Origin: a virus | Lineage: Duplodnaviria; Heunggongvirae; Uroviricota; Caudoviricetes | DNA: 34,370 nucleotides | Strand: one strand, 5' to 3' | Virus record (IMG/VR): IMGVR_UViG_2737471860_000003 | Shown: positions 15,001 to 18,000 of the stretch, in pieces | Position numbering within the stretch: the stretch's first letter is position 1 | How the letters are laid out: each line of letters opens with the position of its first letter | Position numbers: made by a program

Positions 15001-18000
15001 GCCACTGAGCGGGTTTTTTGTACCTGTAAACTTGGTGCAGTACAGTAAACACGCTGGTGGTCGTGAATACTGACTTTTTATCTTGCTGGCTTTTTAGACA
15101 AGAGTTATTGGTATGTCATGTTAACCAGAAGGGAAAAAGACATGCTAAAACAGCAAGATATGACAGAAACCGCCGCCGCAGTCCTTCATTTCTTACCTGC
15201 TGACAAGTGGGTAACGCCACGCATGATGACGAGAACTACCGGAGTAAGCGAAGCCCGGTGTCAGTTAATACTGACTCAGTTAGTTCTGGCGGGTCTGGCG
15301 AAGGATAACGGCGGGTACGGGAATAAATTCAGACGCTGCCAGTAATGGCGGTTTCCTGCTGTGAAAATGGGCGGCTGGTGGGTGTTGGTAGCACCTGCCA
15401 GCCATTCGCTCATGCTTACTGGTCACAAGCGAACCACGGCCCACTGCTTTAGCGCAAAAGCAGAGTGAGCCTACCAGAGTTACGCTTACTGATCCATGAA
15501 AAATACTGTAAAAATAAACAGTGTTGATTTAATCAACGCTGATTGCCTGCGTTTTATTCAGTCCCTGCCTGATGATTCCATTGACCTGATTGTTACAGAT
15601 CCGCCGTACTTCAAGGTGAAACCCAACGGCTGGGACAATCAGTGGAAAGGGGACGAAGATTACCTTAAGTGGCTGGACCACTGTCTGGCCCAGTTCTGGC
15701 GGGTGTTAAAACCTGCCGGAAGCCTTTACCTGTTCTGTGGGCATCGCCTGGCATCTGATATTGAGATCATGATGCGTGAACGTTTCAACGTGCTTAACCA
15801 TATCATCTGGGCGAAGCCGTCCGGACGTTGGAATGGGTGTAATAAAGAAAGTCTGCGCGCATATTTTCCTGCCACAGAGCGCGTTCTGTTTGCTGAACAT
15901 TACCAGGGGCCATATCGCGGCAAAAGTGACGGCTATGCGGCAAAAGAAAGGGAACTCAAACAGCATATAATGGCACCGCTGATATCGTATTTCAGGGATG
16001 CTCGTGCCGAACTGGGTATAACGGCAAAACAAATTGCCGAAGTCACAGGTAAGAAAAATATGGTTTCCCACTGGTTTGGTGCCAGTCAGTGGCAGTTGCC
16101 GAATGAGGCTGACTATCGGAAGTTACAGGCACTTTTTTCCCGTATAGCGGCAGAGAAGTTTCAGGAACAACAGCTGGAACAACCACACCACCAACTGGTG
16201 GCATCTTATGATTCACTGAATCGCAAATATTCTGAATTGCTGGATGAGTTTAAATCTCTCCGTCGCTATTTCTCCGTATCAGTCTCCGTGCCTTATACCG
16301 ATGTCTGGATGCATAAACCCGTTCAGTTCTACCCGGGCAAACATCCGTGTGAGAAACCGGCGGATATGCTCAGGCAAATAATCAATGCCAGTAGTCGACC
16401 TGGCGATCTGGTTGCTGATTTCTTTATGGGATCCGGTTCCACAATAAAAGCAGCAATGGCGCTGGGGCGTCGGGCATTAGGTGTTGAGCTTGAGACAGAA
16501 CGGTTCAATAAGACCATTCAGGAAATCAGTATGTTATCAGCAAATACAATTTTGTGAATTAACTCAATTATTAGTGGGACATCTGTTACGTATAATCCGT
16601 AACAACACGGTGCATCCTGCAATGTTGCAGGGCTGATGTGGTGGTTTGTGCATAAGTTGCAAAGGATTTGCTTCGTTAATTCATCGTTGACGCAAGCGAG
16701 CCACGGTTGACCACGCCAAAGGCTCATCGGTAGAAATCCGACACCGTGTCGCCATAATCACTCACTTGTTGTTTTACCCATGTTTTTTGGATTACCTGTT
16801 ATTGCTGTCAGACGATTGCCATCGTCTGGCAGTTTTTTTGCGTCATTCCCCCAATTTTCTGAATATAACGCCACCGGATGACTCGGAGGTGAGGTTGTGA
16901 GTCCAATGGACAAAATTTCAACGGGTATTGCCTATGGTACTTCTGCAGGCAGTGCCGGCTACTGGTTTTTACAGTGGCTTGATCAGGTCAGTCCGTCACA
17001 GTGGGCGGCAATTGGCGTACTGGGAAGTCTGGCACTGGGCTTTCTGACTTATCTGACGAATCTGTATTTCAAGATTAAAGAGGACCGTCGCAAAGCGGCG
17101 CGGGGAGAGTAATTCAATGATTAAAAGCTATGAGTTGATTGTGAAAGGGACCCGTAATTTTGCGAATAAAGTCTCGGTAATTGTAGCCTTACAGGATAAA
17201 GAACGTTTTGCCGGTGAAATTGTTGATCTGAATATCAGCATGGATCGTGTTGAAGGGGCAACGCTGGAGTTTTACGAGGCAGAGGCAATCAAACAGGCAA
17301 AGATATTGTTCCGGGATATTGCTGCCGGGTTATGTGAAGGGAACGAACCGTTGCCGGGAAAGCGCCCCATAATTTTAGAGGCGCAGAATGTGTGGATAAC
17401 CTACAGAGGAAAACTACCGGGAAGAATTACTGGTTCTCTGAAGACGCCACCGACGGCATTGCGGTCAGAAAAGGATGATATTGAATCGCTCATTGAAAAA
17501 CTGGAGGGCAGCGTCGCTGATCTGAATAAAAAATTGTCGGTGCTGATTCCTTCTGAAGATGAAAAAAAACACCGCGATGAGCAGTTTGCGGCGTTTTACG
17601 ATTATTGCATTGAAGTTACTCGCAGGAATTTTGTGAAGATTTTTGAGGAGGGTAAATCTCTTCAGTAAGCTTAATGGCGGACGCTGCAATTAATTCAGGA
17701 AGGTCCACAAGGTCATCTGTCAGTGAATATGATGAAAAATCGGCGGCAGTTCTGTTAAGAAGCGCTTTAACTAATTCCTTTTCCTTCTCTGGCAACAAGT
17801 TGATTAGAGCTACGACTGCTTGCCTGAGTGCGATTAAATCAGCAAAAGTTTGTTTTGGTAGATTTGTGTAATCCATAGTCAGTCACCTCTGTGTTTATCA
17901 GATTGACATCCTCCTCCCGCCAGTGCCCATCACTGGCGAGGTAAGATTTAACATATCCGGGGATTTGAAGCCGATAAATCCTGATAAATACCCATGAACG

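Follow-up and report, generated by a model that had tools for sequence, protein, structure and literature searches.

In phages and prophages, several arrangements are known in which a small antisense unit faces genes of the opposite strand. In phage lambda, the convergent 3′ overlap between OOP RNA and the cII mRNA leads to RNase III-dependent decay, and the type I toxin-antitoxin (TA) systems txpA/RatA and bsrG/SR4 from Bacillus subtilis prophages combine hydrophobic toxins of less than 60 amino acids (aa) with RNA antitoxins. A further example are antisense morons such as bor, which follows Rz in lambda and DLP12. Here, a comparable arrangement was analyzed in a stretch of viral DNA of 34,370 nucleotides (nt; IMG/VR record IMGVR_UViG_2737471860_000003, hereafter the window), which represents the late region of a lambdoid prophage of Escherichia coli. 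The nearest complete genome is that of E. coli strain GXU-23-25-310 (98.5% identity over positions 16850-18100). Between the holin gene (S) and the endolysin gene (R) of this prophage lie a gene of the ydfR family (open reading frame 1, ORF1) and a small antisense gene (ORF2, hereafter B), and we read the 3′-end of the former (A) together with the latter as a conserved and mobile two-gene cassette.

Comparison of this pair with the systems mentioned above reveals likenesses as well as differences. Like OOP and cII, A and B belong to convergent lambdoid units whose 3′-ends overlap by ~50-60 nt, which makes antisense control possible; however, OOP is a non-coding RNA of 77 nt from the early region, whereas B is, as known from its sequence, protein-coding and located in the late region. 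With txpA/RatA and bsrG/SR4 the pair shares its location on a prophage and its convergent orientation with overlapping 3′-ends, but here both partners encode soluble-looking proteins. As for bor, B is small and antisense and separates late genes that lie side by side in relatives, it has a lower GC content than its surroundings and apparent 5′ and 3′ signals of its own, and the Salmonella version of the cassette occupies the post-Rz slot in which borD is found in DLP12. In contrast to bor, B looks like a cytoplasmic, acidic and helical protein and not like a lipoprotein, it is paired with an overlapping partner on the late strand that holds its putative terminator, and its promoter is a candidate only.

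The closest described relative of ORF1 is YdfR (b1555), whose gene sits between essQ (holin) and rrrQ (lysozyme) in the Qin prophage of E. coli K-12. In the sole functional report found on the YdfR family (PMC13232886, RNA Biol 2026), K-12 YdfR bound the N-terminal catalytic half of RNase E (residues 1-597) in bacterial two-hybrid and co-purification experiments, with residues 1-72 of YdfR being sufficient for binding (PMC13232886). Purified K-12 YdfR carried RNA, and overexpression of ydfR altered few transcripts, with no growth arrest being reported (PMC13232886). The window protein belongs to the same family and its gene occupies the same slot between a class II holin and a lysozyme. However, K-12 YdfR comprises 103 aa, its gene abuts rrrQ and it comes without the C-terminal tail described below and without B, whereas the window protein comprises 183 aa with a tail whose coding sequence overlaps an antisense gene. 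Binding of RNase E by the window protein may be assumed by similarity to K-12 YdfR only.

ORF1 (17117-17668, plus strand, 183 aa, ATG start) begins 4 nt past the holin stop codon and is preceded by the Shine-Dalgarno (SD) sequence GGGGAGAG. B (17616-17876, minus strand, 86 aa, ATG start) lies antisense to the late operon, with the SD sequence GAGGTGA (17883-17889, minus strand) 6 nt upstream of its start codon. Both genes converge and share 53 nt (17616-17668), so that the last 17 codons of ORF1 overlap B. A first, model-based reading of the DNA (hereafter the original prediction) had already described these two genes with their ribosome binding sites, the overlap of ~53 nt, the 117-nt spacer between B and the endolysin start at 17994 and the flanking pinholin and signal-anchor-release (SAR) endolysin, all of which were recovered here, the latter two by matches to PF04971 and PF00959. 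Its statement that holin and endolysin genes are adjacent in DLP12 likewise holds, with essD and rrrD directly adjoining. The hairpin it had placed in the spacer exists as well, with a perfect 8-bp stem at 17918-17938 in place of the proposed 7-bp stem at ~17921-17939, and the TTGACA sequence it had pointed to is present on the plus strand (17903-17908), though without a -10 partner that would make it a promoter. Its central claim of an inserted module within the lysis operon is correct in that the S-R interval holds additional DNA when compared to DLP12-type cassettes, but not in the form of a two-gene insertion: aa 1-112 of ORF1 represent DUF1327/YdfR, a regular resident of the S-R junction, and the real variable block covers ~17461-17990.

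The N-terminal domain of ORF1 (aa 1-112, 17117-17452, plus strand) matches PF07041 (DUF1327) with 120.3 bits at a gathering cut-off of 25, and close homologues of ORF1 bear the NCBI name "YdfR family protein". Identity to K-12 YdfR amounts to 62% over aa 1-74, and AlphaFold2 (AF2) predicts a beta-beta-beta-alpha fold for the domain with a predicted local distance difference test score (pLDDT) of 65-86. Members of the family occur with lengths of 103/114, 162-183, 211 and 296/305 aa, the N-terminal domain being common to all of them. K-12 Qin and Shiga toxin (Stx)-type prophages normally have the gene order S-ydfR-R. Of 5426 complete E. coli genomes searched with a query of 1.25 kb, 2809 matched its holin and ydfR N-terminal part; the entire S-ydfR-ORF2-R arrangement, which is already annotated in, e.g., PhiR5_1 and REL606, was present in 284 and the ORF2 segment in 311 of them. 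Since the YdfR family is this common at the S-R junction, ORF1 does not represent an unusual insertion. In three B-carrying loci, NCBI's Prokaryotic Genome Annotation Pipeline (PGAP) calls ydfR a pseudogene ("incomplete; missing C-terminus", ~112 aa), namely L003 4234-4785 (REL606), L004 18268-18819 and L087 949-1500, and the 183-aa reading frame is intact in each of them. This looks like a systematic annotation artefact arising from the convergent overlap or from the reference model.

The variable block was delimited by an alignment of the region from S to R of the window, PhiR63_1, PhiR5_1, REL606, three further E. coli loci and K-12. Compared to a short-form cassette (L089: S, a ydfR gene for 114 aa, a 50-nt spacer and R), the window contains one extra block at ~17461-17942, comprising B, the hairpin and the last part of ORF1, its C-terminal extension (aa ~113-183). 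Loci whose holins and ydfR N-terminal parts are far more diverged (74-81% identity over comparable regions) still share 94-99% identity in this block. The GC content is 42% for the cassette and 40% for B (34.5% at third codon positions), compared to 51% for the window, S and R. The high identity despite diverged flanks, together with the low GC content, implies that the block behaves as a mobile cassette, with an approximate extent of ~530 bp (17461-17990). DLP12, K-12 Qin and both the short-form and the long-form ydfR cassettes lack B. The helical C-terminal extension of ORF1 (aa 113-183, 17453-17668, plus strand; hereafter the A-tail) is absent from the short YdfR forms (103/114 aa) and common to forms of 168-211 aa; the long form of 296 aa runs past the tail motif into an unrelated domain of ~120 aa and is not accompanied by B. 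As the boundary of the cassette lies ~100 nt beyond the stem-loop that follows the B stop codon, the cassette takes in the whole A-tail.

At one E. coli locus with a 305-aa long-form YdfR (L118), an uncalled antisense ORF for 233 aa (3167-3868, minus strand) was found between ydfR and R, overlapping the last ~250 nt of the 305-aa frame. It is preceded by a homologue of window positions 17916-18028 with 86% identity, containing the same hairpin and TTTATC leader, and its product yielded no match in Pfam or PHROG. It could be an alternative antisense cargo sharing the leader, in which case the C-terminus of the 305-aa "YdfR" may be spurious.

The convergent pair itself spans three lineages of B and four genomic contexts. 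In the context of the window (T1), a holin gene is followed by DUF1327 with A-tail (168-211 aa), B (86 aa) and the endolysin gene, with an overlap of 53 nt; this cassette also occurs in Salmonella, there together with a holin of the HP1 family. In the second context (T2), the order is S21 holin, a protein of DUF1327, middle region and A′-tail (174-250 aa), B′ (93 aa) and SAR endolysin, with an overlap of 59 nt. The third context (T3), found in Salmonella and relatives, comprises two holins, a GH19 or other endolysin, Rz/Rz1, a free-standing gene for 73 aa (A″) whose start is coupled to the Rz stop, B″ (93 aa; overlap of 59 nt) and, after ~400 nt, the terminase small subunit, and thus uses the borD position of DLP12. 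In the fourth (T4, L097), a 144-aa protein with an A′-tail is encoded downstream of Q and two small genes. On every contig with a diverged B homologue, B converges on an ORF of the opposite strand with a 59-nt overlap. Altogether, the canonical partner C-terminus with an overlap of 53 or 59 nt, i.e., the last 17-19 codons of both genes, was present at 108 of 114 B loci, with frameshifted or disrupted partners at the remaining ones; these loci are a redundant sample, yet all three B types follow the overlap rule. In the Salmonella prophage loci L116/L117, a T1 ydfR/B cassette is directly preceded by genes for a ParE-family toxin and an antitoxin-like helix-turn-helix protein (1059-1759), which are located between the Q antiterminator and holin genes.

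Similarity between the partners extends across contexts as well. In blastp comparisons, the free-standing 73-aa protein from Salmonella shares 34-40% identity with ORF1 residues 149-183, and hhalign aligns it with the A-tail at a probability of 71% (E 4e-5) over the last ~30 residues only. Within the overlap, the ratio of nonsynonymous to synonymous polymorphism (pN/pS) is conservative for the frame of A (0.4-0.8) and amounts to 1.3-2.0 for the frame of B, and the half of A outside the overlap shows values of 0.37-0.48 in informative pairs. Selection in the overlap thus favors the frame of A, which agrees with the disordered tail predicted for the B protein.

Several observations bear on the coding nature of B. 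An open frame of 86 codons would arise by chance with a frequency of ~1.6% per frame, and of 137 related T1 loci, 136 retain an open B frame, as do two other lineages. A first homology search with B returned near-identical Escherichia proteins only; exhaustive HMMER and profile searches recovered diverged homologues of 89-93 aa with 38-49% identity from Salmonella enterica and gut samples. The phrog_2572 profile is matched by the whole of B (E 3.4e-52, positions 1-86 of 86), and a match with E 6e-24 was obtained for a Salmonella homologue. In cross-lineage comparisons, the B frame contained zero stops in every lineage and had the highest BLOSUM62 score per residue (2.1-2.3, vs. 1.2-2.0 with 1-2 stops for the best alternative frame), and the third codon position showed the lowest nucleotide identity in all three comparisons. 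All indels among the homologues are in frame, the start codon and an SD sequence are kept (GAGGTGA in T1, TAAGGA at the equivalent position in T2-T4). Among the closely related T1 copies, the signal of selection is weak, with pN/pS values of 0.3-0.6. The cross-lineage frame, BLOSUM62 and codon-position results settle the question: judged from its pattern of sequence evolution, B is a genuine gene. Scans of one genome per species and of metagenomes yielded no B lineages beyond enterobacterial prophages.

According to the AF2 model (pLDDT 73), the B protein consists of three helices (residues 8-25, 30-48 and 59-74) and a disordered tail. It is acidic in all lineages, with an isoelectric point of ~4.6, and its first helix is fairly hydrophobic (Kyte-Doolittle mean over 19 residues of 1.6-1.7) while containing Asp and Arg. 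The A-tail has a grand average of hydropathy (GRAVY) of -0.66, and no confident transmembrane segment or signal peptide was predicted for either protein. Foldseek searches with B against PDB and BFVD gave no match with E < 2, and a sequence-profile search of PDB gave nothing below E 1.2. No match was found in PADLOC-DB at E ≤ 1 for ORF1, B or the 73-aa partner, nor did either protein match a toxin or antitoxin family in Pfam, NCBIfam or PADLOC. The label DUF1823, used for B in the annotation of PhiR5_1, was not significant in Pfam (E 0.07), and apparent relationships to TPR/CHAT/STAND proteins (P0139, P0140) turned out to be artefacts of repeat-summed helical matches. The idea that B is the antisense shadow of a decayed long-form YdfR C-terminal domain was also rejected: tblastn searches with forms of 246-305 aa returned nothing within 17669-18000 at E ≤ 10 in any frame, so B is not such a relic.

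Upstream of B, the tandem motif TATTTATCAGGnTTTATC, which consists of two TTTATC units 10 bp apart (TTTATC-N4-TTTATC, 17988 to 17973, minus strand), is common to all lineages. In the window it is followed after a 17-nt spacer by TATGTT (17955 to 17950; entire element 17950-17988); the same hexamer is found at this distance in T1, T2 and T4, and TATTGT takes its place in T3, the element thus being kept despite different neighbouring genes. A single exact copy of the tandem motif was found in the 34-kb window, compared to 0.12 matches expected when up to one mismatch is allowed, and it is invariant among 51 T1 haplotypes, though the leader is the most variable segment overall. The score of the local alignment between the T1 and T3 upstream regions was reached by only 1-19 of 1000 dinucleotide shuffles. 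As a promoter, the element would be weak (3/6 matches for the -35 and 4/6 for the -10 hexamer), and generic scans of T2 and T3 for promoters and terminators were negative. We therefore describe it as a conserved motif that is a candidate for a weak promoter or for an operator or regulator-binding site, and for nothing firmer. Read on the plus strand, positions 17973-17988 give GATAAA-N4-GATAAA, ending 5 nt before the ATG of the endolysin gene, which has no obvious SD sequence. The xTAAA-N5-xTAAA spacing recalls the direct-repeat boxes of response regulators, such as GTAAA-N5-GTAAA for CpxR. A plus-strand promoter starting from TTGACA was rejected for want of a -10 partner, and a consensus scan of both strands of the spacer gave no sigma-70-type promoter.

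The leader of B contains the hairpin already mentioned, a perfect 8-bp stem formed by CGCCAGTG (17918-17925) and CACTGGCG (17931-17938) around a 5-nt loop. The 72-nt leader with this hairpin folds at -26.5 kcal/mol (z = -3.4). The inner five base pairs are kept in all T1 loci, REL606 and PhiR5_1 have lost the outer pairs, and no compensatory change was seen; as an RNA element conserved across lineages the hairpin was rejected, the consensus reaching only -1.3 kcal/mol. In the window, the SD sequence of B is predicted to pair within the leader stem, which was not seen in T2 or T3, so that sequestration of the SD was discarded as a conserved feature. The window also differs from all other aligned T1 loci by a 4-nt tandem duplication of AGTC between SD and ATG (17877-17882), widening the gap between GAGGTGA and the start codon from 2 to 6 nt.

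A second conserved structure follows the B stop codon at a distance of 19-22 nt, within the coding sequence of the A-tail. This stem-loop, AAAACGCCGC-N12-GCGGUGUUUU followed by U8 on the B strand (17562-17597, minus strand), has the consensus AACGCCrC-N12-GyGGCGTT and lies inside A in all lineages. An alignment of 10 distinct sequences covering all lineages shows pairing in 100% of cells of the 8-bp core, with one compensatory change from G-C to A-U in T2/T4; the window itself has one G-U pair. The window structure has z-values of -3.1 on the B strand and -2.9 on the A strand, and values for the window (T1), L091 (T3) and L107 (T2) range from -2.9 to -4.7 against shuffles of both strands; a strand asymmetry, which was also considered, does not exist in energy terms. 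In T1, an inner version followed by the U8 tract was flagged as terminator-like. The stem-loop is a candidate terminator of B, possibly a bidirectional one. With its low GC content, its own conserved upstream motif, leader and SD sequence and the stem-loop and U-tract past its stop codon, B looks like an autonomous, moron-like unit.

These features can be combined into the following model. Gene A has the orientation of the late operon and is found here as the C-terminal 71 aa of ORF1 and elsewhere as a free-standing 73-aa gene or fused to other N-terminal parts. B would have a transcript of its own, made most plausibly in the lysogen or ahead of late transcription, which would end within A and thus be antisense to ~50-110 nt of the 3′-end of A. 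Q-antiterminated late transcription through S-ydfR-R would then meet B head-on, and because it must cross B in this way, expression of A and B is expected to be mutually antagonistic, both by transcriptional interference and by pairing of the two RNAs across 53 nt or more. The B protein would probably act on the A-tail or on the domain fused to it, which here is the YdfR N-terminal domain, the K-12 homologue of which binds the catalytic half of RNase E. The overall picture, in which a small antisense gene and the 3′-end of a late gene from the YdfR family make up a conserved and mobile cassette, including its regulation, is favored by us with moderate confidence; our confidence in the genetic anatomy is much higher, and that in the regulatory and protein-interaction steps, as well as in any effect on RNase E or lysis, much lower. 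Improbable is the idea of an as yet undescribed type of phage switch in which the antisense gene, expressed in the lysogen, provides both an antisense RNA and a protein antagonist of a late effector docked via the A-tail. If it were true, the effector would be the RNase E-binding YdfR domain, and host RNA decay would be reprogrammed only after late transcription has overridden B.

A number of observations weigh against this model. No sigma-70 consensus scan found a passing B promoter in any lineage, the proposed -35 matching at 3/6 positions only, and since the 50 nt at 17943-17993 are also found in front of R in cassettes that lack B, the tandem motif could serve R or simply be a junction left by recombination. 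For the stem-loop, folding favors neither strand, and the U-tract, good in T1, is weaker in T3 and poor in T2; as conserved residues of A (R-R/R-H and A-A/V-A) are encoded in its arms, constraints on RNA and protein are not fully separable. The dN/dS values of only 0.3-0.6 for both genes rest on few substitutions, and within T1 the variable sites of B are distributed over the codon positions as 9/8/15, which is not significant. Neither Pfam, NCBIfam and PADLOC nor the structure searches gave a structural or family match pointing to a function of either protein, and no expression data for B were found in the searchable literature. B is also dispensable to the host, since one locus (L081, from IMG/VR) has a premature stop at B codon 19 and another (L088, E. 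coli 7_14_50A) carries an IS3-family element in B, whose nt 1-71 and 69-261 lie 1.3 kb apart (120-190 and 1501-1693). Finally, the cross-lineage homology of the A-tail is confined to ~30 aa lying over the 3′-end of B and the stem-loop, so that part of it may reflect a constraint on the DNA and not on protein A.

The last point is also what an explanation without any coupling can build on, according to which A and B are two unrelated, co-inherited accessory genes, with B being an ordinary antisense moron that by chance ends, terminator included, within the final part of the neighbouring late gene, and the overlap a matter of compaction. The B tail encoded in the overlap is disordered and evolves freely, and other antisense morons do exist in lambdoid late regions, e.g., borD after rzpD and, in the prophage studied here, a gene of the YlcI/YnfO family after Rz. 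However, mere co-inheritance does not account for an open A-type frame with its stop 53 or 59 nt into B in four contexts, among them a free-standing 73-aa gene, for the purifying selection on the A frame both in the overlap and in the non-overlapping half, or for the inclusion of the whole A-tail by a cassette boundary beyond the stem-loop. We therefore consider this explanation possible but rather unlikely. If it applied, the finding would reduce to an ordinary moron.

In comparison with a coupled late gene and antisense partner, a TA-like or addiction pair controlled by 3′-overlapping antisense transcripts, as in txpA/RatA or bsrG/SR4, appears improbable. In such a pair, one protein would inhibit growth and be neutralized by the other or by the RNA of the other. 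The conserved convergent 3′ overlap, the mobile, low-GC and prophage-borne nature of the cassette, the rather hydrophobic first helix of B and the predicted pairing of its SD sequence in the window leader would be compatible with such a pair. Of the features of type I systems, however, only the 3′-overlap geometry is shared: neither protein resembles a short hydrophobic toxin, the A-tail being hydrophilic and the first helix of B containing charged residues, B encodes an acidic protein of 86 aa and is no small RNA, and the SD pairing is not kept in T2 or T3. The co-directional operon and TA domain of type II systems are not found either, as the genes are convergent and match no toxin or antitoxin family. 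Moreover, some lysogens carry a stop codon or an insertion element in B and have retained A, and overexpression of K-12 ydfR, which encodes the N-terminal domain only, had little effect on the transcriptome (PMC13232886).

A lysis-timing accessory, antiholin-like or endolysin-regulating and specific to the pinholin/SAR-endolysin system, would fit the position between S and R and the fact that the cassette is always found within or beside late/lysis regions. Since holins from no fewer than three unrelated families (PF04971, PF16080 and PF16931/PF05449) and different endolysins accompany the cassette, and since it follows Rz in Salmonella, a holin-specific role is disfavored; with neither a confident transmembrane segment nor a signal peptide in the two proteins and with B on the wrong strand for co-expression with the lysis genes, we regard it as very improbable. 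Next to no probability is given to ORF2 being no gene but a chance or antisense-shadow ORF in a recently spread segment: the T1 data (dN/dS weakly below 1, codon-position bias not significant), the nearly open frame opposite B and the missing annotation of ORF2 in PhiR63_1 and some other records may suggest this, but homologues with 38-49% identity keep open frame, start, SD and length, substitutions across lineages score best in the B frame and follow the pattern over codon positions expected for it, the opposite frame contains 1-2 stops, the long-form YdfR C-terminal domain has no counterpart here, and AF2 returns a compact three-helix model.

Among the roles suggested in the original prediction, those of a TA-like pair, a defence or anti-defence cargo or, in a holin-specific form, a lysis-timing regulator are accordingly without a supporting signature in Pfam, NCBIfam, PADLOC and the holin contexts, and the idea of a coupled pair with antisense overlap is kept alive by two real genes and a conserved convergent overlap. 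The remote-homology and structure searches it had proposed led to families (YdfR, phrog_2572) and to no match indicating a function; of the "ordinary conserved lysis accessory genes of known function" that it had named as its refutation, the words ordinary and conserved apply, and a known function was not found. The supposed insertion splitting a lysis cassette is therefore mostly an ordinary and widespread layout, to which the conserved convergent cassette and its fusion to a YdfR domain make a modest but real addition. Both proteins were already present in databases (PF07041, phrog_2091 and phrog_2572; "YdfR family protein" and "hypothetical protein" at NCBI), and the searchable literature held nothing on B, the pair or the conserved overlap. 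A large proportion of E. coli prophages have a ydfR-type gene in their lysis cassette, with the partial match covering about half of the complete genomes searched, and a subset of these genes carries a portable tail with an antisense partner, the overlap being conserved over phages of E. coli and Salmonella. The cassette thereby offers a testable handle on the function of these genes and on the gating of expression inside a late operon. It also helps to correct a recurring annotation artefact, the intact 183-aa ydfR being called a pseudogene and B being variously annotated or omitted.

The upstream neighbour of the cassette is an S21-type class II holin (pinholin) of 71 aa (16897-17112, plus strand; PF04971, E 1.1e-35) and the downstream neighbour a SAR endolysin of 177 aa (17994-18527, plus strand; PF00959, E 2.8e-24), both lying outside the cassette. 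Downstream of the endolysin gene, Rz was identified by a match to PF03245, and an Rz1-type lipoprotein ORF (18744-18926, plus strand) is nested within it out of frame, as expected of a spanin pair. Further downstream, an antisense ORF for 79 aa (19138-19377, minus strand) lies between Rz and the terminase small subunit; it is annotated as YlcI/YnfO family in the near-identical L004 and represents a second small antisense gene in the late region of this prophage, in the same post-Rz slot as borD in DLP12. Upstream of the holin gene, the promoter-like sequence TAGAAA-16-CATAAT (16731-16758) is followed by a strong intrinsic terminator with a 13-bp stem (16804-16833) and T7, ~60 nt upstream of the holin. 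The segment 16731-16840 looks like a pR′/tR′-like pair of late promoter and terminator for Q antitermination, although a gene for a DNA methyltransferase of 353 aa (15496-16557) is located between the Q region and this site.

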